Shown: positions 10,715 through 63,426, numbered from the stretch's first letter. The stretch: 64,000 bases of DNA from Yuukianura sp. NJ FZ-2021 (GCA_046563655.1 CM102284.1:2666001-2730000); one strand, 5' to 3'. Program-made: numbers and translations. Notes: generated by a model not told the origin, from the sequence alone.

Positions 10715-13164
10715 TTTTACCCGAGTTTCTTTTGCTACTTATTGGAACACAAGTTCGCTGTTGATCCAAACTTTGGAAAGAGTTTTTTGTAACTGAAATT
10801 TCACGTTAATATAGGTTGAAATACTTTTAATCTTTTGTAAGGCGTTAGGGCAGAACTACTACTTCCCTCATTTTTTTAGCTACAAAAACTGAAAAACTAG
10901 GAAAATTTTTTTTATGTTTACTTAAAATGAAGACAGCCCAACTAAGAATATTTGATCTTACCAAAAAAAGGTTTGCCATAACCAAAGGTTTAATAAAATA
11001 TTTAGAAGTTTCGACTTAATTTGCTTATTTTGAATGTCAATTTTTGTACTGAAAAATTAATAAAGAGTGAAATCTATTTCCCTATCATCGCATTAGCAAA
11101 ATTGCAAACAAACAAAATTATGTTGAGGTTCTTTTATGTGTTCCAATTTTTTTTTCGAAATTCCTACAAAAAAAAAACTGTCGTTGATGCTGTTTAATCT
11201 TGCTACAACTTCATGTGAACTTCAAGTCACCAGGGAAGAAGTTGAAATTTTAGACATGATAGTTATTAATTAGCACTAACATAATTAAGTACTACTTGAA
11301 GACTGGACGCACTTGGGGGTCACACTTTTAGTGTGGTTTCCTGCAAACGGGATGCGAACTAATAATCTTTCAACTTTCACCATCGTTACGTGGCTTCACA
11401 GCATTCAAAATTACGAATTGACATAGGGTTTCTAAAAAAAATTTTTTAGTTTAGTAATCATGGTTTAAAGGTGGAGTCTAATAATATCAAGGAAATAACA
11501 CAACCCGGTCTAATAGAAAGCTCACTCATTCTCAGCATAATTATAATTTGTGATTGGGCATCGGAAAACAAAAACCAATTGAAATGAATACATGTTCATA
11601 ATTTCATCAAACCTATAGGCTTAATTTGAAAATCCATAAAAATTTCTCTGCCTATTTTCCTATGCATGAAAAGAGCGCATGGCGGTGTACTTATGATTCA
11701 TTTAGTGCACAAATCCTAAATTAAAAATATTTTGACTTTTATAAATATATCGTTATGATAATTTTGACGGAACAATTGGCTAGTTTTATTCCGGTAGAAT
11801 TTAGTCGAAGATGCCATGCCTAAGTAATTTCATATCAATAATTGTGTCCAGAAGAACCACTATCGCTTGTAGCTGGATCATACTATTGAATCGAGGAATC
11901 ACTTCTGTCAACCAGATTCTGGGTCATCAGAATGATCTTGACCCCTAGTGATCTCGTAAAAAAAATGTCTCATCGAGGAATATTATTACACGCTTACTGC
12001 TATATTGTTTCATCGTTCCGTCAACTGCCTAAGGTTTCTAAAAAGAAAACTGAAGGGAAACAACTTGAGCACTTGACAACATATTTATAACTTCCAGTTA
12101 GAGATTCCCATCAAGTATGTAAAGCTTTGTGTAAGGTGGAGGTACTAGTGTAATTGTTGAAGGGTCAATTTTGACTTAACTCCTACTCCACAAAGCAACT
12201 TTGAGTTCAGCTTTGACACCAGGAGTTACAATGACAATGGACTTTCATGAAAAAGTCCATTGTTACATTCTAAAACTCAAAACCAAATTCTAAATCAAAA
12301 CTGAACCTTGACTCTTTGTTGCTATTTTTGCTTAGAATTATTTTGCTTCCTCAGCTAGAAAATGCATTTTTTTTTGTCACAGTACTACCATTTTGCATTT
12401 CACATAAAGCACATCTGAATAACGTGCTGACCATGACCAACAACGATTATTATTTATTATAATTATATTATAATTATTATTTTTTAACTAAATTCCACTT
12501 TACAGCAGTAATGTCCTTGTTGTGTTAAGTGGCTAATCGCCCATAGTATTTAAGTAATTCATTGAGAGAACATCTTTGCTTCGGAGTAGTTAGCCCATTT
12601 CCTGATTGGCTCTTAAGGACGCCCAAAGTGTGTTTTTTTTCAGACTTGTTTCGTGGTTTCTTCTAAGTATCTTGGTTCTTGTAAAGACACAAGACAAGAA
12701 CAGGACAGGTTTCAGTACTAAACAAAACAGACAGAGTCGCTAGGAAAGTCAGTTCAGCTCCCCCATAACTGAAATGAATAAGATCAGGCATGAGAACATT
12801 ACGTATAGTACACACTCGTATACCTAAACAATAATAAGTGCATTCCCTTTTCCATCCAGAGGACTTTACACATCCCAAAACAGTTGGTATGAATTTTGTT
12901 TTAAAAGTAAGGACATTGCCCATACAATAATTTAATTACTAAGCATTTTATATTGCTGATAAACCAATTTAGATTAAAGTTTGCGGTCATCCTATCACTC
13001 CAAGAAAATGATACAAGACCAAGTGGGTTCAAATTCCTCGTCATCGGCATCAGCAGATTTTGCAAGAAATTAGTTACTGCTTCTAGTACTATTGCAATCT
13101 GTGCAAGGAAAGCTCTCATGAGGCAAACCTTGGACTCTATTTTAGTCAGTTCCATTTTTGTGCA

Positions 13165-16100
13165 ATGAAGGAAGTAGAAAAGCTACCAATTCCAGTTAGT
13201 CAAATTAAGAAAGAAACCGAAGACATGGACCAGCATGGTACACCACCGCCTCCGTCATCTCCTTCCCGTTCTAGGTCAAGTTCAGGTCAGAGAAGTGAAA
13301 AGCGCCGAAGGACGGAAAATACCAATCACAACAATGTAGAAACTGCAGTAGCAGTAGGAAATGATAGCTCAACTACACAAGGTACATTTTTTAACTTTCG
13401 TTATAATAAAAAAAAATCAAAACAAAAACGACGTCATTACGTCTGAATCAGAAAATGAATTCTGAAAACGGCATTTTATCTCAAGTCAGCTTTTAGATTT
13501 CTTTTAGAAGCTTTCTTTTAGAGCCGAATAAGATTTCGAGAGGGTCGAGTCGAGACTTCTTGAAGTCTTATTCTTCACTGTAAGATGTGAACATTTTTTT
13601 TTGAAGTTTGAAACTGGACCCAAAAAATCTTTCAGATCCAGAAAACAAACTTTTCCGATGTTTTTTTCAGTTTCACTACATGTTAAGCCATTTCCAGTCG
13701 TTTCTCGTAAAAGGAAATTATGGGAAGGGTTCCCATGAGTGGGACTTGGGGTTTAAGACTTTGACTTTTTGAACTTTTCGGAAATGAATGTAAAGGGAAA
13801 GGAACCCTTCTGTTTTAAATGTGGTCGTGTAATAAACGACCATTTTGACTCGTAAGGCATGATAATGCGACCATGGGTTGAGGTCAAAGGTTAAGTTGAA
13901 GGCTTTCATCTTGAGAATTGGTTGGATGAAAAGTCAGAAATCCTAATACTATTCAGCGAATAGGACTGCTGACGGGGTGTGGGACTTCACTCCAACAATA
14001 ATGCAAAGCATTCATAAAAATGTGAAAACACCGTTCGCAGGAATCGATTTGACAAATTCTGATCAGTTTCATTCGTACGCAGGAGATCCACATCAGAGCA
14101 ACGACTGTAACGTACCGATGTCGTCAACTACTGGTGCAGGCGACATAAATAATCAAAGTGGCAGATCTCGTTCCCGTACCCGCAGTAGAGACAGAACCCC
14201 TCAGGCAGTTTCGTCTCCACGTCCAGTACAAATCATTTCGTTTGAGGATGACGGTCAGTCAGGATCAAGCAAAATGCGTTTGGATCTACAAGTACTAAAA
14301 CCGATTTTGGAAAAAGGAGGAGACCGACCTGCCGTGATTATTTCCATCGTCGGCCAAATTCGAAGAGGGAAGTCCTTGTTTTTGAATTTCATTCTACACC
14401 ACCTTGTTGCACAGGTTAGTTTAATGTATAAATTATTTAAAAAACAATTCTTGATTATACAAAGTGTTTTTAATTGTTACAATGATTATTAATAGGAAAA
14501 AGGCACGAATCCGGAAGAAATATGGAAGGAGGGAAACGGAATTCCTGTAGGATTTGAATGGGGGAGAGGATTCGGAACGTCGGGAATTTATCTTTGGAGT
14601 CAACCAATAATACTTCGATTAGGTGATGAAGAATGTGCAATATTTCTCATGGATACTGCAGGTAATAGTTGATTTATTTTACTATTTATATATATATATA
14701 TATATTTATTATTACTACTTATTATGTGTTAATCAGGATTTATATTTTCAGGGCTTATGTTTAGTAAGATATCTGAATTTATGTGGACCCTGGGGCTTTC
14801 AACATTGTTGTCGTCGTGCCTCATTTTCAATCAAGATGTTGAGAGGGGAGGAGGACTCAACGAAGATTACTTTTTGCTCTTTTCGGATCAAGTCCAAGTA
14901 GTATTGAAAAGTACGAAATTGCAAACTCTACTATTTCTTATGCGAGATTGTTCGAGCATTTCAAATCTATTGGGCAAAATTGATCCCCAGCCTTTTCTTC
15001 ATCAACAATTTAATTTGGATGCCGTTCAAGAACCAAATTCAAGTTCAGCGCCTACGCGCCGCCCGAGCGGGAATAGAAATTCCAGTCGCATTAAGACAGC
15101 TATAGACTCATTATCCACTGCTTTTGAACGCAGTGAATGCTATTGCCTTCCATTTCCGTTCGTCTCTACCAACTGTAGAGGCGCAGAATCTGAAATGACC
15201 TCAACATTTATTTCAATAATGAAATCAACTTTGGGCAACATGTTGAGTACAGAAAATCTGAAGCCGAAAAAATTAGGTAGTTCAGCAGTTACTTCGGCTT
15301 CGTTGGCCGGAATTTTTGAATTGCTTGTGCAGCTTTTTAATAACGCTGGATCCAGTTTTCCTCAAAACCCACACATCCAAGAATGTCTAAAGGAAATCGA
15401 AGATGGAATTTTTATACAAGAGCAACTAAAGCTCTATCAGCAGAAGCTGAATGCTTACATCCAAAATTCCCGATATGGATTCACAAGCCGAGAGCAGCAT
15501 AATGCTCATCACTTAAAACTTCGAAACGAAATTCTAGAAACCACAAAATTACATTCTTTCGCCCACCCAACCACGAGTTACAACCTAGTTCAACATTTAA
15601 TTGATGACAAGTACAAAATTTCAAAGGCAGAGAATGACAAGACTGTGAGAGCCGCATATACTCAAGGATTCTGGGATCACTTCGATACCAGCATGGAAGA
15701 ATGGGAGAAACTTATTCGAGAAGCCATTACACAATGGAAGATTGACGACGATGCAGCAAAAAATATTGAAGCTATTTGTTTAGAAAACTTCAAGAAGAAG
15801 TTTACAGCAAATGCTCAGCAGTTAGCCGAAAGGTTATCAACCGCCCTCTTAGAGAAGATTCAACGGAGATACGAATTGCTCAAAGCAGTGCAGCATGAAT
15901 CAAGAACTCAAGTGTTGAACTCAAGTAGTACAACCTGCGAAAACTGCAAAATTGCTAATCACAAGGCTGAAGTCCTCAACAACTTTCATAGGGAAATGCT
16001 TAGAAGTTTGCCCATTGGGCAGTTTGTCATGCCAGAACAATACGTCAAAATTCGGGAATCCATTGTATGTAACCTCCCCACTCAACCCCACAAACTGGAA

Positions 16101-17356
16101 CTCAGTGACTTCCTGCCAGCTTTCAAAGTGGAACAGGAACGGAACGCCAGAAATGCACCAGTTCTTGGATTTTTTGTTGACGGAACGAGTTTAGAATCAC
16201 TTTGTTTAAAGTTTTGCACATTTTATGCCAATGGGGAAATTGCAACGGTTGATCCAACCTACGAGGAGGAGCTACCTTTCGTTGGACGGCTAGAACGAAT
16301 TCGTCAAATATTTGAGGACGCCTTGGACTGTGCGTTGACCCAAGCCATTGTAGTGACATCGTCAAAGTTGAAATTATCTACTACAGACACTGTTGCTTTG
16401 GAAACTAAGCTAATCCAATCTGGCTTCAAACTTGTCTACTTTGCAGATGAATATTCAGCACTAATGCTGACTTGCATTACGACTAAGTTTAAATTAGTTG
16501 AAAATCGAATCTTGACGGCAATACTTGTTCTTGACAACGGTGACGGTACAGTGGATGTTCAGTCATTTAGAGCATCTGAGTCAGCGATTGAGGTGGGAAA
16601 GGAAGGTATGACTGGACTCAGGATTGGAACGGAGGAGGAGGCACGTGAAAGCATGGACCGTATTAAGCGACTTGCAAATCGATGGCTAGAAAATGACAAG
16701 CGACCGTTCCTATTAGTCGTACGACACTCCTGTGAGGGACATGGGGAATCACAGGTAGGTATAAATGCTTTGCATTTAAGTTTTCTCAAGCAGGTCAAGT
16801 CAAGCAAATGTCATATGTCGAATTGCATTGCTGACTCTTTCTAACTAGGGCGCCAAAAGCAGAAAATTTCGAACCAACACTTTCTTCACAGACATCCACA
16901 AAACTTTACACATTGCCGACTTTTCTTCCATGGAAAAATCCAAGGTAATTTTACGGAATAATTTCACTTTTATTATATATATTTTTTGTTAGTGGTATAT
17001 TGCGTATTTTGAACCGTATTTTCCTTGTTTTATCACATTGAATTCAATTGCAGATTAACGTAGGCGTAGCAGCCTTTGGTGAACTGATGCGGCGCAGGCA
17101 AGCAGGTACATTTTCATTGCAAGTACGACGACAACAAAAAAATGACGAATGTGGAAATCAAACTGACGAGTCTGTTCCGGCTGCTGCGAGTTCAAATAAT
17201 TCCAGCCTTCCAGTTCAAATCGAACCGCCCTTGGGAAGCGGAAGAGGTGAACCAGCGGTAGCTTCACACAATGGACCAGTTCCTTTGCTTTCATTGAGAA
17301 TTGAAATACCAGAAAAATTGAAATCCTCGGGAGATGACAAAAACAAAAGAACATAA
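13165..17356 (+). CDS. Atlastin/GBP-family large GTPase fused to a degenerate HSP70-like nucleotide-binding domain
   Basis: Exons ~13165-13381, ~14041/14083-14414, 14496-14661, 14752-16754, ~16849-16944, 17054-17356. G1 GQIRRGKS, GFEW..TSGIYLWS, G3 LMDTAG, LSTLLSS..IFN, G4 LFLMRD, helical middle region, then VLGFFVDGT / FADEYSAL / LVLDNGDGTVDV / VGVAAFG. Confidence 0.8.
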
Positions 17357-17946
17357 CACAACATAAGATAAATCCAGCATGTATATAACTGGAAAAAATC
17401 AAATCCAAATCAATATTTTTTTAAAAAAAATTTTAGGCCTTAAGTCAAAGGTTGAACATGGTTTTTCTGGAGAGAATTACATTGTTTGTTCTTTTGCCAG
17501 TGTGTGCACCACGGTACACAAAATTTTGCACTATACGTTGACAGTTTTTTATCTATAAAGCCTGCATGCAAATCTGTTCATAACGCACCACTTTGCTTGT
17601 ACTAATTTTGAAAACAAAAAATACGAAAGTTGCAAATACCAAAACAGTTCAACTTTTTATTAATTGTGTAGGACAGTCCTGATGAGAAAATTGATTTCTG
17701 TCAGTCAAAATTGAAATAAACTTGTTAAAAAACCCAAACGTGACTTCGACGTTTTAGTGCATTTAAATTTTTGAAAGTTTTTAACCTAAACAAATAGAAT
17801 TCTCTACATATTTTTTATAACTATACAAGCTACAACCTGCGGATTTGTTAAACTCAACTAAAAAAAAGACTCTTGATTGCCGTACAAATGTATGTGTAGG
17901 CCAAACGTTAAATTCGGCAAGCGAAAATTCATACGTTTTAAAGTTT

Positions 17947-19554
17947 TTAGTTTGTCGACAGAAGACAAAAGGCTATTCCACGCGCAATGTTGTCCAACAA
18001 AGTTAGTTTTGCTTCCTGAAATTTTAAAATTCAAATTTAACTTACGCTATTTAACTGCAACGGCTAAAAAGACGCTAATGCAAGATAAAGAATATTAGCG
18101 AGTTTTTACCCCCTCCATGTGATAAAAGTTTCCAATAGTACACTTGAGTATTGGAATTGATCGTAAAGTTTGTTCGGTCCACAAATTTTTTTCCGTTTGG
18201 TCCGATGTTTGTCCTCGTTCGTTGATACTTTGACGAAATTTTGACGAAATGCTAAAAACTCTCGACATAAGAAGAGCTCCCGCAGCTATCATAAGAATAG
18301 CTGTAACTACATAGGATAGAAATATTGCACGAATTGCAATATGTAGCGAATGACGCAAGCGTACAAGAGAAAAAATCACAATGAAGACAACCAGAATAAC
18401 CGCTGTTTTGAATACCGGCAAAATCAGTTTTCCAAAAACTGTGTTGTGCAGTTGGTTGAAAAGTTGCATCGAGCGGTAGATGTGAAAACAGTTGCGGACG
18501 CATTGTTCCTTAACACTGATACAAAGCAATTAGAAATATTTTATTTATAGTATATAAATATTATAATTGCTTTATAAACCTCCAGGTCGATTTTCAATTA
18601 ACTCGAGATTTGTGAGTTGACCTGAACAAAATCTCAAAAATGTGTGTCAAAGGTTTCATACCATGCTTGGCACATCCAATCCATGAGTGTGAGGACAGAT
18701 GGAATGAAAGTGGCAATAAACAACATCCCGTCACAGCACAATATATTAGTATAAACGACGCCCAACACAATGAGAGCAGCACGCACCCAAGTACTGGTAA
18801 AGATAGTGCAGCAGATAATCGTCATTTGGATAGCTGAACCAACAATGCAAAATCCAGAAGCGGCAACTAATCCAAGGTAAATGTTTCCACGAGTTCTGCG
18901 TGGAAACTCATCTTTTGGCAGTTCACCTCCTACAGCTTGTTCTAAAAAAATTGTATTTATTTAAAAAGATATATGCTGGAATTCATACATTATTTCAAGT
19001 ATATCACTTCAAGCATGCCGTAATTGTTTTAAATGTTCATACTCGGTTGGCAGGAGAGGTCAAGTTGTAAAAGCAAATCCGAAGGCATATAATTATAAAT
19101 AAGGTATACATAAAGTGTAACTCGATATAAAAGTGTGAGGTAACAAAGGTTGGAATTTCGGTTTACAAGATATCTAATATTGTTTTCTATATAAAAATGT
19201 TTTACCTAGGACATCGCCGATGGAAATGATGTTGTTTGCCAAACAAGCCCATTCGTTTCTGTAGGTCATAAGTGTGAGGCGCAACGCAACACCAGCCAAG
19301 TTTGCGAGTGCCAAAAAAGATACGACTACTTTGACATTAATTGGATCCGTTGCGAACAAACGCATGCAGTACTACATCAAAATACTTCCGACATAGAGAA
19401 GGAGTGACATTGGACCAACGAATCGCCCTACTCCGTTTGTTTTTGTAGTTTGAACAACAGAAGACCCTCCCTTTAGCTCAATTTCAACTAAATTGAATTT
19501 AGAAATAAAAATTAAAACTTTTTTGAACATGGCCACTTCATATGTATTTAACAT
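17947..19554 (-). CDS. Divergent 7TM chemoreceptor-like protein, copy 4
   Basis: Four exons (~19554-19206, ~18941-18662, ~18515-18110, ~18015-17947); C-terminus PILKCTIGNFYHMEGEAKLTLLDNIARGIAFCLLSTN. Confidence 0.7.
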
Positions 19555-22157: not shown

Positions 22158-24211
22158 ATGTTTCGTCTATTCAAGATACTGCGGAATAACTGGAAGAAGA
22201 CAATATTTTTCGGGATCGTTGGTTATGTGGGAACAGACAAATTGTCGGAACGATTCAGGTTAGAAGAAGTGAAGTATTAATGTCCATTTATATTTCCTTA
22301 TTTCGAGTCGATGTTTTCGACTTTCCTATCTAACTTGTCTTTCGTATTCCAATTTAGAATAAATGAATTTATGAGGGAACTGGCCAAAGAAGCGGAATCT
22401 TATGGCAAGGGACCGCTGCCTGCTGGAGCCAGGCCAAAACACATCACAGTACTGCTGAATCCGGCTTCCGGAAATCGGTAACACGAGTTGTATCAACTTT
22501 GTCTTGGAAGCAACAGCAACCGGTTGGATTCTTTCTTTTTCGTAAAATGGGGTAGGCAGCTTCCAGTGCATTTAACAGCATCGGTTATGCCGCTAGCCAG
22601 AGCACGCGATTAAAATGCGTTAGGACGAAAATGATACGATCCAACCGGGAGGTTGCTAATCCTACGTACAAAATGTTCAAGTATTTTACAAGTGTAACCT
22701 TCTGTTGTGTTTGTCTTTTGCAGTAAAGGGCAGAAAATGTTTGAATATGCAGAACCTCTAATTCATCTATCAGGATTTCTTGTAAATGTCGTGAAAACGG
22801 AGAAGATTTCTGAAGCTCGGGAGCTGGTGGAACTAGTGGAGAAGACAAATATAATTGCAGTTGCGGGCGGTGATGGAACACTGATGGAGGTAAACCCTGC
22901 CGTTCTCGAATAGTAGTAAAACAATAATTAGAAATCGGTTATAGGAATATCTATTTCCCAGTAGGTTTGAGAGAGGCAGAAGTTGATTTTAATCACTACA
23001 ACAATGTTTTAGTACATGTAGATGCATGTTGTAGTACAACATGTGCCGTATAACGTAAACGTTATAATCCAAATCTGAAACAGTTTGTTTTTGTTTATGA
23101 CGATAAGGTTGTAACTGGTTTGCTTCGGCGAGACGATGCTGATGACGTCGTTCGTAGATTTCCTATTGGTGTGATCCCTGTTGGCAGACAGAATTCAGTT
23201 GCTACCGCAGTGCTTAACTACGATTCAAGATTTCAGAAAGATAGCATCGCTCAAGCAGCAATGGGTATCAGTCGCCACAACACAAAGTCCCAAGATGTTA
23301 TCAAAGTCGAACTCATCCATCCCGCAAAGGTAAGAAATTATTGTAAAGTCATTAGATTAGTTAAATATATCCCTTACCCTAGTTTTAAATCTGGTTCGCG
23401 GTATAATTCAATTTCATGTTCATTTATTCCAAACGCAGCAGATTCCCGATGAAGATGCGCTGGAATCGAGACAAACACAGGAGCCAGTTGATCCTAATCA
23501 GACGGAGTTGGAAGAAAATACTCAGAAGAAACCATACTACATTATGAATGGTTTTAAACTGGGTGATTTCTGTGAGGCCGAACGAAGAGAGTCTGAAATG
23601 CCGAGTTTCCTGCACGCCGGATTTTCACACCTCTGGAGCCTTCTCCGAACTTCGAGTGCCAAATCTGAAATGGAAGTACGCTACCTTTCCTACTGTCCTG
23701 GTTGTTCAAACTGTAAATCCTTGTGGGTAAAACCCGAAGAAGAAAATTCCATGTTCGGCAGGGTGAAAATGATCTTCAGGCCTTCCGTTTATGGTAAGCT
23801 ACAAACCCCGCCTCACTTGTCAATCATCGCTCCGGCGGTCTAGAAAGTACTACTATCACATATTCGTTTTTAGCTCAGGAAGATCCCAAGTGGAGCACGG
23901 TTAACCCACAATGTGGCGTTTGGGACTCAATTTCTGTGGATACGATAGAACTAAACGTTGTTGCCAAAGGGAATGGTAAACTGGAAATACAAGTTGGGAA
24001 GGATTTCTCAAAGCCAGAGTTCGTTAGCGAAGGACTGCAGCGACGGTACAAACGAGTTGAAACTTTTAGTAAGCGGATTACCTGCCAAGAAGTGGAAATT
24101 ATTCCAACATCCAAGTCAAATACTTTCTATATGGATAACGAAGACTTTCCCGTTAAACCTATGCGGATGGAGGTGCTGAGGAACAGAGTTAATTTCTTCA
24201 CTATTCGTTGA
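22158..24211 (+). CDS. AGK: Acylglycerol kinase, mitochondrial (6 exons)
   Basis: MFRLFKILRNNWKKTIFFG N-terminus typical of AGK; VLLNPASG, VAGGDGTLMEVVTGLLRR, PIGVIPVG, CPGCSNC, YMDNEDF. Confidence 0.9.
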
Positions 24212-38110: not shown

Positions 38111-39815
38111 TCAGGCACTTGCCCAAAGTTTTCCAAAGCTAAAAAGTCCCATAATGAGTGCTAAAATTAGGACCGTAGAGTTGGTGAGGATACTGCTACT
38201 ATTGCAATTGTTCCCTTTACAAGTGCAAACAGTGATACGTCCACCGAGTCCAGCACGGTAGTAGCAAGCGTCATTGTACTTTTCTTCGCTATCGTCCCAC
38301 CCACAAGTCCGCTTAATCCTCTCTCCAGCCTTGTTGTCATTCACGTCAAAGTCAACAACCGTAACCATTTTTCGACAAAACTTGTAGCTCTCGTTTGCTG
38401 GAAGGGCCGGCAATTGCTTCTTGAAATCTGGTTCTGTTGTATTACATGGTTTCGAATACTTTTGGTCAACGTCTTTTCCATGGCCACAGTTTTTGTCCTC
38501 CACGGAGTTACAAATGATACAACTGAGGCTGGACACTGGAACAAGCAAAAGTAAAGCAAACATTAGACACTCCTCATTTGCAAATATTTGAGATTCACAG
38601 GCTCAAGTTCGCAACTATAGTTTAAGTGGATGAAGTGGAAAGAAGCTACTGTGCTAATTCTGAAATTGTCCAATTAGGTTAACGTGATATGACTTTTCCG
38701 CCACGAGTTGGCAACTCAGCAGTTTGAAAAATTTCTGCAGGTCATTAATATTAAACCTAAGTTTTTCAATTTCAATAATTCCAATGCCAATTCAATTATG
38801 CATTTTGAACTTCAAAAGTAATTATATTTATGGTCAGTTTGAATATACTTCCGTGGCCTTTCCTAAACACTTTGCAATCCAGAATTTTGCTGTTTGCCAA
38901 AATTTTTCCGAAAAACCGCTTAAGATAATTCTAACAAAGATTAAGGCCAAAAGTTCAAATTCCTGTGCAAACCTCCATGAAAATGTGTCGGCGTGCATAG
39001 ACTACTAAATCTTTCTTCGAAAAGTTCATCCTTATGCTAAAAGCATGCCAAGAGAATTCTGGGGTCAAAGGTTAACCTGACTGTTATAGTCGTTTCTCAT
39101 AACACCCTGCAAAAAACTAGACTCTTTTTAGTGCAGAGAGTGTTTGGCGAAGAATTAATTCTACTTGAGGGATTGATTACGTAATGTAAGATGGAACAAA
39201 ATTCTGCTCGTTTTGAAGTCACAGTTATTACAAAGCCGTTTATAGCATTTTGTTCTGGTAAATCATGCTTAATATTTTAGACGTCTCATAAATTCTACTA
39301 GACGAAGCAGGGACACTAACTTATTTTCACACAATGAATTATTCATCCAGAAGCAGTGTAGACCAGTTTTACATTTGTTTCGAGCATCCATACTTTCTTT
39401 CTCACATTACAATTCGAAAAAAAAATTTATGAATCCCAGTACAGAAATGTCGTTCTATGTAAGGTCAAGCCGGTTCTCAAATTTTTGGATAAGAAAAACC
39501 AGTTGCTCAAAAACTAGATCTCACACCTAGTTAGTAAATAATTTTAACACCTTTAAACAACTAAATGACAAGTTTTGAGCGTTTTAAACCCGTTATTGGA
39601 CTTAAAAACTTCAAAATTGTTAAATTGTTCAAATATGACCCTGTTTCAGACTCTGTCAGATGCAAAAGCCCAAAATTTGGACTAAAACTTCCAAAAGGTG
39701 TGAAAGTTTTAGTTTTTAGAACTCGAATAAACACATATATCGATGCAATTAATCGGAACTTACCCGTAACTGCTGAAAGAAGAACCAGGGACGAGATGTA
39801 CAGTAGCGTCTTCAT
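38111..39815 (-). CDS. Ly6/uPAR three-finger (Quiver/sleepless-family) GPI-anchored protein
   Basis: Signal-peptide exon 39815-39764 plus exon ~38535-38111; LSCIICNS..C..C..CRK..RTCG..CY..CTC..NCN and hydrophobic tail. Confidence 0.88.
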
Positions 39816-43187: not shown

Positions 43188-44379
43188 ATGGCTCCTCCAA
43201 CATATGCTGACTTGGGCAAGGCTGCTCGTGACGTCTTCAGTAAGGGTTACCACTTCGGAATCTTCAAGCTCGATTGCAAGTCCACAACGAGCGGCGGAGT
43301 AGAAATTAACTCCGGAGGAGTCCACACCCTTGACGAAGGAAAGGTCTCCGGTTCCCTTGAAACCAAATACAAGGTTCCCAGTTATGGTAAGACAACCGAT
43401 GCTGTGATGAAGGCTTTCAAATTGTAAGTATTATTGCTGTTAAACCAACTGTAAATAAATTCATATTTCCCAGGATTGACCTTTACTGAGAAGTGGAGCA
43501 CCGATAACAACTTGTTCACGGAACTTGCTTGTCAAGACAAAATTGCTCCAGGAGTCAAGGCTGTTCTCGAAGCCAATTTCAATCCAGATTCTGGGTAAGT
43601 TGGCTATTTGAAGAACGATCATCCTCCTCCCAAAAGATTTCGCAGAAAAACTGACTAAATTGAATCGTTGATCTTGCAGAAAGAAGGATGGAAAGTTCAA
43701 GGCGCAATACAAGGCACTGAATGCGACTGTTGATGGCATTTTCTCCGGAGGTGATGAAGCCAACGTCCTTGTCAACGGTTCCATCGTTTTGGGCTACCAG
43801 GTCGGTTGGAATGAGCTAATCGGATGGGAAACATGTCTTGCATACCCATTTCATTTGTCTATTCTTTTTCAGGGCTGGCTTGGTGGTTATTTGGTCGAGT
43901 ACGATACCAATGAAGGGAATTTGAAGAAGAACAACTTCACTCTTGGCTATTGCTCCGGAGACTTCCAAATTCACGGAAACGTGGACAACGGTCAGCAATT
44001 CGGGGGAAACTTGTACCAGCGCGTCAGCAACCGCCTTGAGACAGGTATGCCAACTTCTCCATCTCAGCATTGTGCTATACAGGCCTATTTATGCAGAAAG
44101 TGACTTCTGTGATCCTCACATTTCTTTATGCTTTTAGGTGTTCAATTGGGATGGAACGCCGGAGAGGAGAACTCAACTCGATTCGGAATTGGTGCACGAT
44201 ACCTGCTGGATGCCAGTTCTGCCATTCGAGCCAAAGTAAATAATCAGTCTCAAGTTGGACTTGCCTTTGAGCAGAAGGTTAAGGATGGAGTCACTCTAAC
44301 TTTGTCGGCTATGGTCAATGGAAAGGATTTGCAAAGTGGAGGTCATCAGATTGGCTTAGCACTTGAGCTAGAGCCTTGA
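43188..44379 (+). CDS. VDAC: Voltage-dependent anion channel (mitochondrial porin), 5 coding exons
   Basis: MAPPTYADLGKAARDVFSKGYHFG, GKVSGSLETKYK, GLTFTEKW.TDN, GYQGWLGGY, RAKVNNQSQVGL, GGHQIGLALELEP. Confidence 0.97.
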
Positions 44380-45175: not shown

Positions 45176-48100
45176 TTATGCGAAAGCATCTTGAAACAAG
45201 TTGTTCTGCTCCTTGAGGTGAATATGCTTGGAGCCCGTGGCAGTCGAAGCTGCAGTGTTTCTTCCAGCGTATCTGTAAAAGAAATGAATTCAATTTAAGC
45301 CATTTAATGCCATGCCACCGTCTTCAAAAGCTGTCTTCCAAGACAGAACTTTTACTATATGAACTTACTTGATTTCCCGTCCTAATAAGTTAGTCATTCT
45401 GGGTTTAACGTATGTCCAAGCTCCACTGTTCTTATGCTCCTCTTGAACCCAATAGATCTGAGCATTTGGATACCTAAAAAATCGGAATTAGAAATGAATA
45501 GTTAAGTCTGCCATCTTTTGTGAATTGTTCCACGGTTACGCTTACTTTTCAACTTCTGCTTTGACCAAATCGTAGGGAAACGGTGAAATCTGTTCAACTC
45601 GTGCAATGCCCACTTCATTTTCCAATTCTCGTTCTGCCCGAGCCTTCTTCAGGTCATAATAGACCTACAAGTATTGGATATAATAAGAAAATACGAAACT
45701 TGAGCAATCTCATACATAATGCTTAAATTATCTGAACTGGCGATGTGAATACCTTCCCACTACAGAAAATGAGTTTCCTCATTCCGCTGTTCCCGTTCGC
45801 TTCGGGAATAACACGGAGGAACTCAGTTCCTTGAATCATCTCATCAAAGCTAGACTTGGCTTCGGGGTGTCGGAGAAGCGATTTCGGAGTCATCAGAACA
45901 AGTGGTTTTCTGAACGGAAGTGCAATCTGTCTGCGGAGGATGTGAAAGTAGTTGGCTGGTGTACTACAATTGGCAACCTAAACAAGCATGACGGACAATC
46001 AAACAATTAAGACATTCAAGCTTCCAATGTGTTTGGATTGGTTTGTTACAGAAATAGCAAGAAAGTCAAACACTTACAATCCAGTTGATGTCATGAAGCT
46101 GTTTGATGGGATTGTCAGACTCGGCGATCGTGTCAGCATCATCCGAGCACATCTGGAGAAATCTGTCGTTTTGAACAAAACAGAAAACGTCAGACTGGGA
46201 TTAATTTAAGTCACATTAATTGATAAACGTTACCTCTCAAGTCGAGCGCTCGAGTGTTCAGGACCCATCCCTTCCATTCCATGCGGGAGGAGCAAGACAA
46301 GACCACTTTGTCGGATCCATTTTGCTTGTCCAGAGCTGATGAACTGATCAATAATAGTTTGAGCCGTGTTGAAGAAATCGCCGAATTGTGCTTCCCATAA
46401 AACTAAAGCGTTTGGATTGGTCATTGAATAGCCCAGCTCGAAACCTGTATGAAAAAAGTAAAACACAAAATTATTAGTGCACAACAATGGCTCGACAGGC
46501 AGAGCTTAAGTTACGAAATTCATCTAAACGTATTTAATAAACCAACCTAAGACTCCAAACTCGCTCAAACTCGAATTGCAGACAGTATACGGTGCTTGAT
46601 CCGGATACAAATTACAAAGTGGACGATAGGTGGCTTTGTCTACGTTTTGGTGATGAAGGACGTGATGACGATGAGAGAACGTTCCTCGCTCCACGTCCTG
46701 ACCACTAAGTCTCACATGAATCCCTTCCTTCAATAACGAACCAAATGCCATAGCTTCTCCGAGGGCCCAGTCCACGACTCTGTTCTCTACCATTTCCATT
46801 CTCGACTTCAGAATTCTTTCAAGTCCCTTATGAATAACAAATTCAGCGGCATTCGGAGGTGGCAAAGAGAATCTAAACGAGTTCAAACGAAATATTAAGT
46901 AAGATTTGATCAAGGCATTGCATTTACACAAGTTTATAGAGACGGAGCTTTACCTTTTGCCAATATGAACGAGTGTTTCCTCGTGAACTCCGGTCGGACT
47001 AACGAACATGGGATCCTTCCCTTCGAAAAACCCGCTCCATGGAGAATCCAACCAGTCCTTATACTTTATCGAGGTTACTTGCTTGGCCGCGATATAAGCT
47101 TCCTCACAAATCCGTTCATACTTCTCTTTTACTTCTTTCACCTCATCGTCCGTCACAACTCCTAAAAATAGTACGAAATCATCGGTTGTAAGTGTTATAA
47201 ATCTGAAAAGTCTTGCACAAGTACACACTGTTAAACTTGAAATTGCAATTGACTTTTGACTTCAACAATGGAAACTTTCTAAGTCAAAGATGATTGTATT
47301 TTCTTAACGTTCTACAATAGCGTACCTTCCCCAATCAATTTGTCAGCGTATTTGTCCAAAACGTTCTTCGTGCTACGGATTTTTCGATACATGAGAGGTT
47401 GAGTGAACATTGGCTCATCAATTTCGTTATGTCCATTTCTTCGGTAGCAAACAAGGTCAATTACAACGTCCTTGTGAAAAGTAGATCTCCATTCTGCAGC
47501 AATGTTACAGACGTGCATAACAGCCTCAGCATCATCCGCATTCACATGAAAAATTGGAGCATTGACGACTCTGGCCACGTCTAAAAATGAGGAATTCGGA
47601 TATAATTGACAGTCAATTATTCAAGACATGAGAGGTTTAGAATTGCCGTCCTACCAGTGCAGTAAGGGCTGCTTCTGCTGTGTCTGGGATCCGTCGTAAA
47701 TCCAATTTGATTGTTCACCACAATGTGAACGGTACCATGTGTAGTGTAGTCAGGTAGGTCGCTCAAGTGAAATGTTTCGAAAACAATTCCTTGTCCGCAG
47801 AACGCAGCGTCGCCGTGAAGCAGTATTGACATAACCTTCTTTCCTTCGTTGTCACCACGGTAGAATTGCTCAGCACGAGTCTTTCCTTGCACTACAGGGT
47901 CTACGGCCTCTGCAAACCAAAATTATCCAAAGTTGAATATACACATAACCATAAAGAAGTTTCCTGTAGCAGCGCAATAAAAAGTTGAAGATGAGTTCAA
48001 TTACCTAAATGGCTAGGATTTGCCACAACTGCGAGTCGAATGTTTTTGTTCGTTACTCGATTCAGTCTCTCAATATAAGTTCCCAAGTGGTATTTCACAT

Positions 48101-50925
48101 CGCCTATTCGAAACAGATCGGAAAATTGTACAACCAATTCATGCAACATCGTTAAAGCCCATTCAGTGGTACTGTTAACTGATGTGGAACTTACCACTGC
48201 CATCATCCGTCACCTCCAAAGCGGCAAACTGACTAAAGATTTGCTCTAACGGCTTTCGGCACACATTTGCAAGAACATTGAGTCTTCCACGATGTGGCAT
48301 TCCCATAATTACAGATTCGACTCCAAATTCAGTAGACTTGTCGATAACTTGCTTCATCGCTGGAATCAACATCTCACACCCCTCGAGTCCAAACCTAGAT
48401 TAACATAATTTTTTTAAATGCAGATTATAGGCGTTTTTAGACTTAATTTCCAAATCTATTGAATTAACATGTTGCCCAACCGTTTTTCACTGGACCACTT
48501 TCGAGCCAAAAAGGACTCCAATCCTGCCGATCTGCTCAATCGGGCCAAAATCAGCCGTTTCGTTTCGACGTCAAAGTGCTTCACTCCGGGAGGTTCCAGT
48601 CGTTGACGAATCCAATTGCATTGCTCCAAGCTATTGATAAACATAAATTCACATCCGATGCTACGACAGTATGCATCTTCGAGACGGGAGAGGATTTCAC
48701 GCAGTGGCAACCGCTTCTCCTTGCCTCCGATGAACGTTGTTGCGGGAAGCTTGAAGATTCGGTCCATGTCTTTCTCCTCTGCGAATAATTCAATATAGTA
48801 TTTATTATTCAAGTCTTTAAATCAAATTTTAAAAAAAGCTAAACCGCTTCACTACGCATGCGCATTTAAACAACTAAAAACGACGAAATCAAAAGTTAAA
48901 CCAAGCAAGAGCATTTCAAACAGCTATTGCAAAAACAAAATAAAGTGTCGATTGGGTAGATTACTGGCGCGTTACCAAATGAGTAACTCTTGTAGATGAG
49001 TTCCATAGGCGTGGAATCGTCTAAATCCGCACTTTGAATACCTAGGGGGTCCAAGTCGGCGATGTTATGACCACGTATCTAAGATCAAGAAAACTATCGC
49101 ACTTAAAAACCAGTCAACGATTACTACGATTATCGCATTATCATGATTCTTTTTCAAATTTGAATTTCATGTTTAGTGTGATTAGTGTAAGAAATGCGCA
49201 TACGCAGTTGAAGCAAAAGCAAAATTGATTAGGCACAACCCCATCTCGTTCAAAAGGTCAACTTAAAGCATTACCCAAATGCCTTCGAAATACAAGTTCC
49301 TTCTTGGCATCCTTCACTTCTGAATGGAGATCGGCATAATTAATGTCCAGAGGATCCAATTTAGCCACATGATGACCCCGACTCTACAAAGGCAGTTTCC
49401 GGATGTACAAATACTCATTGCCAGTAACGTAATATGAATGACGACAATTTTAGCCAACGTGTTGCAGGAGTTGGAGCCAACTGTGCTGGAACAAGTTACT
49501 ACCAGTAATGTGTGAAAATATTCGTTGAACAAAGCAAACCAAGTTAAAGTATTGCTACCCCCATTGGCAAGCGAGGAGTTTTGCAAATAGGATTAATAAA
49601 TTATTTTACTTTATTTATTTATAATATCGTCAGTTTGAAATGTTGATCTCGCATGCAATTGCAATTCGGATTGGAATCGGGAATAGGATATCAGTTCCTC
49701 CTTTAAAGATAAATTAAAGTGCAATGTGTAGCGAGTTCAGAGAAAGCGAACCGTAGGATTAAGGACAAACTGGCTCCAACTTCTGCGATGAATTTTAACG
49801 ACGAACGTTTCACCAGTTCGTGGTGTCACGTTTTAAGACAACGTAGTATACAGCACACCCACAATCGAACGTATTATGGAAATAGTATTTCCTCCGTTCT
49901 TATCATCGACCATGAATTCCCAAGCTTAATGAACTGAAGAATACAACCTTTCCTGCGCATGTAAATCCGAGTGTAGACATTATTAGTGCAATGCAATCTA
50001 ACCAACTTAATTACAGTAAGCAGCGTGCCCGCGATTCAATAATTTAAACAAACGACACAACAGCCTAGCGTGAAGAGCCGAAATGCTGTGTAGCAGTGAG
50101 TGCAAAGTACTGATAAACAGGGTTACTTGACTCTCAATGCCCAGTTCGTTCATCGCCAGCTTTAACCAATGTTTAGTACAATGTTTAAACTATTAGGTTA
50201 GTCAACGTAAAATAAACGCTTCGCACCGAAGCGTTCGGTCAAAGCGTTGGTGGTGTGCAACACTGCGCCTGTTTAAACTCTGCAGGTGATTGATTTGATT
50301 ACCCTCAACTTAATTGGCGTGAAAGGGAGAAGAACTGGACATTCGAGTCTTTTTTATGCTAACTTAGTATGCGTTCCCCGTAGACATACCTGATACGACC
50401 GGATAATTGCTTGAACAGCAAGGTGATCATCGATTAACTGCTCGTCTACAGCGGGAGACATGGCCGGAACTCCTGCAAACGCCGGCACGAGACTTGACAC
50501 TGGTAGAGTATTTCGCGGCGGTAACGTCAAAGATGGAGGAGGAACGTAGGCTGTACCAGGGGCCGCCCCTGTGGATGAGTTTCGGAAGAACGCATCCCAA
50601 GACTGTCAAACAAACATTAGAACGGTGTTCACTACTTAGCTATAAACAGGGTCGGAAAATCTTCAAGTTATTGGTATCGTTAACTCACAGCATGGACTGA
50701 CTTTGGATCTTGAAGCCATGAATTGTACATCTCCTCAACGTAATTCGATGTGGAACCATTCAGAAATGGCTCTGCTGCCAATGCTTGTGTAGATAAGTTA
50801 CGTTGATCCTTATTCGCCCCAGATTTTGTCGCTGTACTTTCATGTCGAACACTACCAATTCCAATACTCCGTAGTGCTGCCGGAGGCACTAGTGAATGCC
50901 GCAGGAAACTTAACCGGGTGTACAT
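45176..50925 (-). CDS. OGDH: 2-oxoglutarate dehydrogenase E1, mitochondrial, with two mutually exclusive exons
   Basis: [43 protein letters not shown] (TPP motif), [45 protein letters not shown]. Confidence 0.97.
48976..49078 (-). other. OGDH: OGDH mutually exclusive exon B (103 nt)
   Basis: AG/GT-bounded; [34 protein letters not shown]; phase 0 to 1. Confidence 0.88.
49275..49383 (-). other. OGDH: OGDH mutually exclusive exon A (109 nt)
   Basis: AG/GT-bounded; [36 protein letters not shown]; phase 0 to 1. Confidence 0.85.
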
Positions 50926-61459: not shown

Positions 61460-63426
61460 TTATTGCGATAGATAAAGATCCACGAAGACAGCAGCATTGG
61501 AGTGAGCCACATCTTGGAACGATGGCGTTTTTTTAACATCGTCTTTGTTCCTGTAACGAGAAAACAAAAGAATTACTATAAGGTCCAGCAATGGAAATTA
61601 TGGGTGTGCCACGCCAGTGCCAAGCGGTCATGTCCATAATCTCTTCAATAGATTCATAAGAAATACTTATTTTTACCTGTTGATGAAGTCTATGACTTTG
61701 CCTTTCAATGTGGCTGCATTGTGAAGATGGGCGAGGACGAGAACTTCTGCAGCATTTTCTACGGTGAGGTTTGTGGCAATTGCTAACTCGCAGTCTTCTT
61801 TCAAACCACCCAAATCATACTTCTCCGAGATCTGCATAAGATCAGCTGCTTTTTCGTTGAGGTCGAGGGTTTCTCCAGTGTAGATGTAGTCCAGCATGGC
61901 CTTCACAACGTCCTCCTCAAAATCAGCAATCTCAATAGTGTTGTGAACTGATTCGAGCATTGGAGCGTTAAGCATGGCCCGAAAAACTGTGCTTCGTGCT
62001 ATACAAAAGCAAAAATAAAATATAAAAACTTATTGTAGCCCATTAGGAAACCTGAACAAATTACATGTTGCAAAAAAAAGTTAGGAAATCGTACCGCAAA
62101 GAATTGCCTTGTGTACCATGAAAGTTTTTGTGGGAGTGGAGAGAGCAACATCGGCAAATTGACAGTCTACTAATAAATCATGCATGTTCTGCGAAAGTAG
62201 TTCGAAGCGACGACGTTTGATGACGGCGGCTGCATCTTTATCGAGAGATGCGCCTCCTTGCCCAACGCGATGTCTCAACTCTCCCTCAATCCAAACACGG
62301 CAATGAATTTTCAGAGTGTCGTCTTCCACAAGGCGACGGGTGGGTGAAGTGATATCCACGGTCTGAAGGAATTTGTCATAACCCCAGACACTGTACTTCT
62401 TGAATTCACAAACGGTCATAGTCGGACTTCCTATAAAGAATGACAGTGAGGTATGGCTCATCAGTAAACAAATTGAAACTTGGAATTCCTATCGAATAAA
62501 TGTAAAGTTAATAATGTCAACCTGCTTGTTTTAGTGGACGGCCTTCAGGATCCAGGAGACTGATTTGAAAGCGAACTTTGAGCTTTCTTCCCACAGTTGT
62601 GTCCCCATCTCCAAACGCATTGAGAATCAAATGAACTGCAAAATACTCCGTCTCGTCAATCTTCTTCTTTGGACACATCTTCATTTGCCTAAATAACACA
62701 TGCCGTCAGTATTATTCAAGTCTCTCATGATTATAGCTCATGGTTCAACTGATTAACAGTTTAACCATGTTGGATTTAGCTTTAACAGAACAACTTAAGT
62801 TTGCAAGACGATATGTACATTAAGGCAAAGTAAGGGTTTGTTACCACTGGTGACAGCTTTTCGGGCCTCCCTTGAATGTGGGTGATTTGATCTCCTCGCT
62901 GCCACTGCTCATAGCTGCATAGTTCTTAATTGACCAAAGAAAGGAGAAGGTCTCTTGCTCCAGCTGACGTGATAGGAATACATTAGGGAAACAGATTAAT
63001 TATTGTTTATCCAAACGGAACCTTCATGCTTAAATTGAAATATTGACTTGCCTCTGTCGAAGCCCACTGTTCCACCGTTTCTGGACCAAACGCCGTTTCA
63101 ACCTTACGTTTAATCCCATGGGGAGAACCTCCTCCGCTTCCTCCTGATCCAGATGATCTCGGCGAAATGGCTCTATCAAAAATACGAACTTCACCTCCTG
63201 CCCCACCAGCGCCAGCAGCTCCACCGCCACCCACTACTCCGGCTCCTACACGAACTCGTTGCTGTTGCTCCGCATGACGTCGAATTGCAGCCATAACAAT
63301 GGCGTCTTCTCTTCCGCGTTCACGTTCTCTGAGGCGTTGTTCACGATCTCTATCCGTACCGTTATTATTAGGGAGATTGTTGTTGCGAGCGCCTCCTCCA
63401 GAACTGGCAAATAAAAACAATAACAA
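61460..63426 (-). CDS. MATH-BTB protein (SPOP/roadkill-like Cullin-3 adaptor); start exon uncertain
   Basis: MATH: FSFLWSIKNY..IKSPTFKGG...WGYDKFL..DDTLKIHC; BTB: FADVAL..FMVHKAILCARSTVFRAML..MLDYIYTG..KYDLGGLKEDCE; BACK-like LTVENAAEVLVLAHLHNA. Confidence 0.9.

Follow-up and report, generated by a model that had tools for sequence, protein, structure and literature searches.

Does the locus at positions 13165-17356 (+ strand) of the 64,000-nt stretch of Yuukianura sp. NJ FZ-2021 DNA analysed here (GCA_046563655.1 CM102284.1:2666001-2730000; "the window" below means this whole stretch, in which all positions are given) encode a true fusion of an atlastin/GBP-type GTPase with an HSP70-type ATPase domain, as an earlier note made from the sequence alone had proposed, and if so, to what family does such a protein belong? 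We consider it probable that this is a functional gene of a springtail-like hexapod, encoding a soluble atlastin/GBP GTPase joined to a reduced domain descended from the nucleotide-binding domain of an HSP70, and that its product is a divergent member of a springtail GBP-linker-HSP70 family. The two halves of the protein differ in how firmly they can be assigned from sequence: the N-terminal half can be classed solidly as a soluble large GTPase of the atlastin/GBP type, while the similarity of the C-terminal half to HSP70 is weaker but concordant.

Gene structure, constraint and the GTPase half

From the stop-to-stop reading frames and the raw sequence, we assembled a six-exon gene whose spliced form has 1080 codons with no internal stop, the frames joining across all exons; its five introns measure 81-575 bases, and all five have GT..AG borders. 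Exon 1 (13165..13381, amino acids (aa) 1-72) is an open frame that ends at a GT donor, with an inferred start codon, and encodes an N-terminus of low complexity, rich in Ser, Arg and Pro, in which a KRRR cluster lies at aa 46. The remainder of the low-complexity part and the start of the G domain lie in exon 2 (13957..14414, aa 73-225), which includes the P-loop GQIRRGKS (14352-14375, aa 205-212), and exon 3 (14496..14661, aa 226-280) follows with the switch-1 region, GTSGIYLW (14574-14597, aa 252-259), and the beginning of the G3 motif DTAG (aa 278-281). Exon 4 (14752..16754, aa 281-948) is a 703-codon open frame holding the rest of the G domain with its G4 motif LMRD (14937-14948, aa 343-346), a helical middle region, a linker, and an HSP70-like core up to the strand FLLVV. 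Exon 5 (16849..16944, aa 949-980) has 96 bases, phase 0 and AG/GT borders, and exon 6 (17054..17356, aa 981-1080 plus stop) opens with the helix INVGVAAFG (17054-17080, aa 981-989), continues into an 85-aa Ser/Pro/Gly-rich tail and ends the protein in ...DDKNKRT; we found no substrate-binding domain, CaaX box or Pfam match in exon 6.

The 2-kb exon of the earlier note proved exact and its open frame was confirmed. Exon 16849-16944, which the note had not listed separately, is needed because the frame is otherwise not kept. The motifs that it had quoted for the GTPase and for the C-terminal region each occur once in the model, at the expected places. Exon 4 on its own starts within the last part of the G domain, continues through the helical region and takes in the HSP70-like core up to and including the phosphate-2 motif; because a single exon spans both domains, their juxtaposition is not a gene-model artefact. 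By domain, the atlastin/GBP-type G domain with its proximal helices occupies 14310..15470 (aa ~191-520, a span that includes introns), the helical linker 15471..16142 (aa ~521-744), and the HSP70-like region with a putative reduced ATPase fold 16143..17098 (aa ~745-995, exons 4-6). The segment in front of them (aa 1-190, 13165-14309) is Ser/Thr/Pro/Arg-rich with RS-type runs in addition to the KRRR cluster, a composition that resembles nuclear-targeting or RS-domain sequence.

Selection on the gene was estimated over 13000-17500 from the contigs of two DNA runs, X5 from a related organism (organism B) and X1 from what is probably the source sample, the organism B contigs leaving out 13000-13754, 14057-14962 and 16020-16170. 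Organism B differed at 55 positions in 14963-16004 and at 40 in 16183-17500; the counts that follow describe a subset of 40 listed differences out of 102, the other 62 not being in the list. Among the 31 listed coding differences, 22 were synonymous and 9 were not, with codon positions 1, 2 and 3 accounting for 4, 5 and 22, respectively, against a synonymous share of 0.29 expected from the observed mix of transitions and transversions (P = 2e-6). Of the 13 listed differences in the HSP70-like part, 8 were synonymous (P = 0.02), while exon 5 contributed three listed differences, one synonymous and two not. The only indel inside exons among the listed differences was an in-frame loss of 3 bases. 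Because of this synonymous excess, we conclude from the substitution pattern that the reading frame is under purifying selection, the C-terminal region included, and the locus is by the same token best taken as a real, functional gene.

The assignment of the GTPase half rests on several searches. Exon 2 matched the Pfam GBP family (PF02263) with an expectation value (E) of 5.2e-4, below the gathering score, and exon 3 matched positions 47-83 of the same profile at E 5.7e-3; the single-exon scores of 19.7 and 16.3 bits fall short of the 21.1-bit cut-off because introns split the domain. Among solved structures, exon 2 matched the atlastin-3 chain 6xjo_A (E 3.4e-4), with GQIRRGKS aligned on GAFRKGKS, and phmmer aligned residues 102-260 of exon 4 with residues 241-399 of an atlastin-1 chain (E 9.5e-4), an alignment that covers the beginning of the three-helix middle domain at E about 1e-3 only. 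By far the lowest expectation value came from a profile of the N-terminal part of the springtail fusion proteins described below (HSP70 columns removed), which gave a single continuous match to the spliced model (E 4.9e-52, profile 12-544 on aa 157-696). Of the G-domain columns that are invariant in that family, 14 of 20 were kept, the P-loop Gly, DxxG and RD among them, and, at the level of motifs, the domain retains a P-loop with the in-cis arginine, the switch-1 Thr, DTxG and RD. We found no membrane segment, because no 19-residue window exceeds a Kyte-Doolittle mean of 1.5, a maximum reached at aa 455-476, inside the G domain; the tandem membrane segments that are the hallmark of atlastins after the middle domain were likewise absent by this measure. 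The class of GTPase that had been proposed, its solubility, its intact G1, G3 and G4 motifs, and the lack of an atlastin transmembrane hairpin were thus all borne out.

Atlastins (human ATL1-3 and Drosophila atlastin), the GTPases that fuse the endoplasmic reticulum, are the best-matching solved structures, yet the window protein differs from them in lacking tandem membrane segments, in its long Ser/Arg-rich N-terminus, and in some ~560 extra residues after the middle domain. Vertebrate GBPs of the GBP1 type share the G-domain superfamily PF02263, are soluble and have a helical extension, but the window protein has no CaaX box and no GBP_C domain (PF02841; no match at E <= 1), and solved atlastins match it whereas solved GBPs do not, with no vertebrate GBP chain among solved structures at E <= 10. 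BmAtlastin-n of Bombyx mori, a membrane-less, cytoplasmic atlastin paralog reported to restrict baculovirus (PMC4926086), provides a precedent for membrane-less atlastin-like GTPases in defence, a likeness drawn from its description and not from sequence; unlike for the window protein, no HSP70-like domain is reported for it in the part of that source at hand.

The HSP70-like C-terminal region

The C-terminal motifs on which the HSP70 comparison was built are VLGFFVDGT (aa 751-759), QAIVVTS (16341-16361, aa 811-817), YFADEYSAL (16437-16463, aa 843-851), LVLDNGDGTVDV (16524-16559, aa 872-883), all on the + strand, and the exon 6 helix INVGVAAFG. When spliced aa 730-1080 were aligned by hhalign with a 113-sequence profile of HSP70 nucleotide-binding domains, a stretch of 95 columns was recovered (score 31.5, P 0.0018), running AIVVTS...ADEYSAL...LVLDNGDGTVDV and corresponding to the connect-1 and phosphate-2 core of HSP70. 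None of 300 shuffled sequences reached this score (mean 16.4, standard deviation 2.9, maximum 26.5), nor did any of 61 natural control segments, equal in length and drawn from the collected proteins outside their HSP70 parts (maximum 26.6), and the reversed sequence scored 19.3. Aligned instead with 11 full-length fusion proteins, the exon-4 fragment gave a sole alignment, which fell in the HSP70 columns (P 0.0068) and paired QAIVVTS with KAVITVPA, ADEYSAL with SEPTSAA, and ILVLDNGDGTVDV with IFVYDLGGGTFDV. A custom profile run with hmmsearch found the phosphate-2 hairpin only, at E 0.0026 in a one-sequence search, and hhalign in global mode returned a meaningless alignment of 13 columns. The best hhalign alignment of the C-terminal flank was out of order, onto the Lys71 region, and we treated it as chance.

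Two further kinds of evidence lead to the same superfamily. Among protein-language-model features, 25 of the best 30 clusters were DUF5716_C (0.94, 179 shared features), a Pfam family that one paper names in an unrelated context; with DUF5716_C removed, the nearest named clusters were HSP70 (three at 0.89) and Ppx-GppA (0.87), both of which we take to be of the actin-fold ATPase kind. A fold was also predicted with AlphaFold in single-sequence mode for the exon-4 part of the region only (220 aa, unspliced). From residue 85 onward the model runs strand, helix, strand, helix, three strands, long helix, strand, an order that would match HSP70 from AVITVP to the strand of lobe IIA with lobe IIB replaced by one helix, although this can be only a hint. 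Foldseek searches with this low-confidence model against 350,542 chains gave no match at E <= 0.001, and all 43 rows shown, at E 2e-3 to 1.5e-2, were chains of HSP70, BiP or DnaK or complexes that contain HSP70.

Set beside the HSP70 nucleotide-binding domain, which has the actin/hexokinase/HSP70 fold, the window region is collinear across the AVITVP strand, the NEPTAAA helix and the DLGGGTFDV phosphate-2 hairpin, and core acidic residues are kept: the alignments retain equivalents of Glu175, Asp199 and Asp206, numbers which, like Lys71, we take to be those of Hsc70. It differs in being ~130 residues shorter, in lying below every curated family threshold, and in what it lacks, namely the Lys71 region, the greater part of lobes IB and IIB, and any substrate-binding domain; the block with the catalytic Lys71 and most of lobes IB and IIB consists of gaps in our alignments, and after the last helix only the 85 low-complexity residues of the tail remain. 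Of the HSP70 columns that are invariant in the fusion family, 24 of 81 were kept. In the phosphate-2 GGG triplet the second Gly is Asp, the adenosine-motif GG reads GHG in the one alignment that places it, and the phosphate-1 Asp/Thr can be aligned in just one of the two MAFFT runs, where an indel is needed. The four motif matches claimed in the earlier note therefore fared unequally: QAIVVTS..ADEYSAL and LVLDNGDGTVDV were recovered together by profile alignment above the controls, whereas VLGFFVDGT and VGVAAFG, which fall in the flanks, were not (hhalign P 0.3-0.6, with differing MAFFT placements). Its statements that subdomains IB and IIB are largely lost and that a substrate-binding domain is missing fit the alignments and the Pfam scans, and a reduced HSP70-type ATPase remnant remains the best-supported reading, given the weak central similarity together with the springtail precedent at the same end of the protein.

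Springtail fusion proteins and the alternatives

That precedent emerged from searches for relatives. With exon 4 as the query, a word-index search of proteins had no match at E <= 0.001, and phmmer against 1.84 billion representatives gave 10 matches at E <= 0.001, all of them on the G domain and proximal helices. Pfam GBP was present in nine of the 10, and one (P0009, a metagenome record of 1685 aa) combined GBP at 41-300 with a canonical HSP70 nucleotide-binding domain at 1331-1678. When the HSP70 part of P0009 was compared with long proteins, 11 of 120 listed relatives carried both the GBP and the HSP70 Pfam domains, and the five named fusions among the listed relatives are all from springtails: two from Folsomia candida (LOC110842700 and LOC118436052), two from Orchesella cincta and one from O. 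dallaii, the Orchesella records being annotated as heat shock cognate proteins. In all eight fusions that we scanned, the G domain is followed by a linker of 400-1000 aa without Pfam matches and by HSP70 at the very C-terminus, with PF00012 at E 1e-95 or better (range to 1e-275). Their HSP70 reaches profile position ~501-516 of 599 in seven of the eight, which by sequence carry the nucleotide-binding domain and the beta substrate-binding domain without the lid.

The window protein shares with these fusions an N-terminal G domain (GxxRxGKS, DTxG, RD), a helical region, a C-terminal module of HSP70 type and the absence of a membrane segment. It differs in size (1080 aa, against 1191-2112 aa with their long linker), in an HSP70 part of ~250 aa that is Pfam-silent where theirs is canonical, and in lacking the substrate-binding domain of which seven of eight fusions reach the beta part. 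In a tree of 17 G domains, which included 11 fusion rows and four rows with neither HSP70 nor kinase, the window protein came out as sister (support 80/85) to a clade that unites fusions from Folsomia and from metagenomes. Ten of the 11 fusion rows belong to one group (81/74), outside which lie the eleventh, P0123, and the four rows that have neither of these domains. The grouping of the window protein with the fusion family on its G domain is weak but consistent.

Other arrangements of the same parts were also seen. Eight proteins, P0105 and P0108 (both from the fly Pseudolycoriella hygida), P0126 and P0127 (both from Orchesella cincta), P0098, P0100, P0106 and P0109, have linker and HSP70 without a Pfam GBP match; their C-terminal HSP70 is 44-50% identical to that of P0009, and their N-terminal parts match the family linker profile at E 1e-20 to 1e-65. 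The linker-HSP70 unit thus also exists without a recognisable G domain, even in a fly record, because the linker profile matches where Pfam GBP is silent. Folsomia candida LOC110849838 (P0004/P0131) has a protein kinase domain in front of a GBP-type G domain that sits inside the clade of Folsomia HSP70 fusions in the tree, which suggests that the G domain may have been shuffled among partners in springtails.

The nearest match to exon 4 is P0002, at 25-27% identity, and the alignment of the two led, in metagenome contigs, to three loci (L001-L003, from one metagenome) in which tblastn found the G domain and proximal helices only (aa 137-606). L001 (475-2162), L002 and L003 have the P-loop GPTQSGKS without the in-cis arginine and apparently end after the proximal helices, and by eye the frames downstream of L001 look like a SET-domain gene. 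They may form a shorter, possibly catalytically different sister subfamily. Within the 64-kb window itself, tblastn found no paralogs of the gene model.

Full-text literature searches turned up nothing on a protein that fuses GBP or atlastin with HSP70. In the genome papers on Folsomia candida and Holacanthella duospinosa, the words guanylate, atlastin, GTPase and Hsp70 do not occur in the main texts, and supplementary gene-family tables may list these genes (PMC5490193, PMC5644144); their sole heat-shock passage, as far as those main texts go, concerns co-chaperone genes of putative fungal origin (PMC5490193, PMC5644144). In the part of it at hand, a survey of invertebrate immune architectures has HSP70 domains and GBP GTPases both as recurring modules, with the fusion not listed (PMC8195603). 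An architecture already known as a characterised family, a possibility raised at the outset, is therefore not what we found; nor is the architecture unique, and it stands unremarked in public springtail proteomes. The fusion family is apparently present in databases and uncharacterised.

How well does descent of the C-terminal region from HSP70 stand up? Several results weigh against it. Pfam HSP70 (PF00012) gave no match at E <= 10 on four fragments, NCBIfam gave none, and none of the 10 phmmer matches among the 1.84 billion representatives reached the C-terminal 220 residues of exon 4. The hhalign probabilities are low (5.6% against the fusions and 14.9% against the nucleotide-binding-domain profile), the flanks are unsupported by hhalign (P 0.58 for aa 730-795 and 0.31-0.43 from aa 897 onward), and the two MAFFT runs put VLGFFVDGT and INVGVAAFG in different places. 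The AlphaFold model (predicted local distance difference test 40.5, predicted template-modelling (TM) score 0.39) is unusable as a fold test, and the Foldseek matches have TM scores of 0.16-0.19 and partly reuse the same amino-acid signal. In L001-L003, tblastn finds nothing better than E 1 for aa 700-1080, and within 2 kb downstream of L001 there is no counterpart of these residues. The window branch in the G-domain tree is long (2.08) and its placement weak, and the synonymous excess was counted on the listed subset of differences. For the distal linker, homology to its counterpart in the family could not be detected against shuffled controls: aa 520-745 alone score 5.9 bits against the family profile, and two of 200 shuffles score higher. 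Because the linker alone does no better than shuffles, homology with the family is established for the G domain and proximal helices only.

These observations would suit a C-terminal region that is an unrelated, lineage-specific alpha/beta domain, its likeness to HSP70 having arisen by chance or convergence, on a soluble atlastin-like GTPase with a novel tail: curated families are silent, no sequence relative of the region was found among the representatives, hhalign probability stays below 15% with flanks that cannot be aligned and a fold model that is unreliable, and the nearest relatives, L001-L003, have no such domain. We nevertheless think this unlikely, since the alignment stands above 300/300 shuffles and 61/61 natural controls, the DxGxGTxDV-like stretch and its neighbours fall in order on the most conserved core of HSP70, three different methods lead to the same superfamily, and a true HSP70 sits at the same end of the related springtail proteins. 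An active minimal actin-fold ATPase, which would make the protein a two-engine machine running on GTP and ATP, appears improbable to us. It would explain the retained equivalents of Glu175, Asp199 and Asp206 and the phosphate-2 G-x-G-T, the phosphate-1 Asp kept in one MAFFT run, and the constraint on the region (8/13 listed differences synonymous), but it is hard to reconcile with a deleted Lys71 region, a phosphate-1 motif that aligns only with an indel, the Gly-to-Asp and GG-to-GHG changes (the latter in one placing alignment), and the retention of only 24 of 81 family-invariant HSP70 columns. A decaying duplicate with an eroding HSP70 end, not expressed or functionless, could account for the very long tree branch and the strongly degenerate C-terminus but is highly improbable in the face of a 1080-codon frame intact over six exons with all splice sites canonical, a synonymous excess at P 2e-6, and a sole listed exonic indel that is an in-frame 3-base deletion.

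Genomic surroundings and proposed role

The gene had been placed among fast-evolving receptor genes, and this was not upheld: two Pfam scans of 20 neighbouring open reading frames each found no receptor family. Just downstream, 18095-18529 (-) is a hydrophobic 144-codon frame with only sub-threshold matches to Pfam membrane families (Tmemb_185A, E 0.02), and it may be what was taken for a receptor. Elsewhere in the window, a complete-looking gene for 2-oxoglutarate dehydrogenase E1 lies at 45179-50886 (-) in ~10 coding pieces, with an identity of 71% to the Orchesella proteins and of 65-69% to Folsomia and eight insects. These identities put the source animal with the hexapods, closest to springtails, and rule out a nematode, which the TTTCAG splice acceptors had suggested. 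Pfam also identified a Quiver/Ly6 domain at 38111-38602 (-; E 9e-12) and a VDAC porin at 43672-44103 (+; E 7e-16), together with weak matches to diacylglycerol/acylglycerol kinase-like pieces at 23054-24211 (+; E 8e-4 and 0.019) and to a MATH domain at 62081-62488 (-; E 3e-4). Inside intron 1 of the fusion gene, the depth of DNA run X1 rises from ~165 to 413-589 over 13604-13905, and contigs join 13787/13788 to 13857-13875 with or without 69-86 bases, likewise in organism B. This segment looks like a dispersed repeat with presence/absence variants, and blastn found no second copy of it within the window.

Under the reading that we prefer, a GTPase carrying a reduced HSP70 descendant, the window gene would be a fast-evolving family member derived from a layout of G domain, helical linker and HSP70 (nucleotide-binding plus beta substrate-binding). 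In this copy the linker would have become short, and lobes IB and IIB, the Lys71 region and all of the substrate-binding domain would have gone from the HSP70 part; the ~250 aa that are left may correspond more or less to its two core lobes of RNase-H-like type, IA and IIA. Atlastins and GBPs bind GTP and dimerise head to head, and because the G domain of the window protein keeps the required motifs, it can be expected, from atlastin/GBP biology, to bind GTP, to dimerise head to head on binding, and to move the helical region. With neither a substrate-binding domain nor the Lys71 region, the HSP70 end presumably does not work as a chaperone engine. The constraint that it still shows leads us to view it as a module through which the GTPase interacts with partners or is regulated, one that would not hydrolyse nucleotide and would at best bind it. 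A cytoplasmic role in defence or stress, by analogy with GBPs and BmAtlastin-n, is speculative. More tentatively, it is possible that springtail-lineage hexapods evolved single-polypeptide GTPase-HSP70 machines that couple a GTP engine to an ATP engine, and that the window gene is a pseudo-ATPase derivative of these. Its remnant would then gate or report the state of the GTPase, acting as a sensor or decoy or as a place where genuine HSP70 partners dock, within a fast-evolving cytoplasmic system of defence or stress response.

Each of the three protein groups (atlastins, GBPs, HSP70s) is well understood, but a natural join of a GBP/atlastin G domain with HSP70 was not found described. The window gene would illustrate how an HSP70 ATPase domain can be pared to two core lobes and yet remain under selection. 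The family also bears on the question of whether atlastin paralogs without membrane segments serve arthropods generally as a defence module, which the work on BmAtlastin-n suggests (PMC4926086). The value of the finding lies more in this springtail family than in the single divergent copy, for the family offers a natural test case of the coupling of a dimerising GTPase to a chaperone unit.

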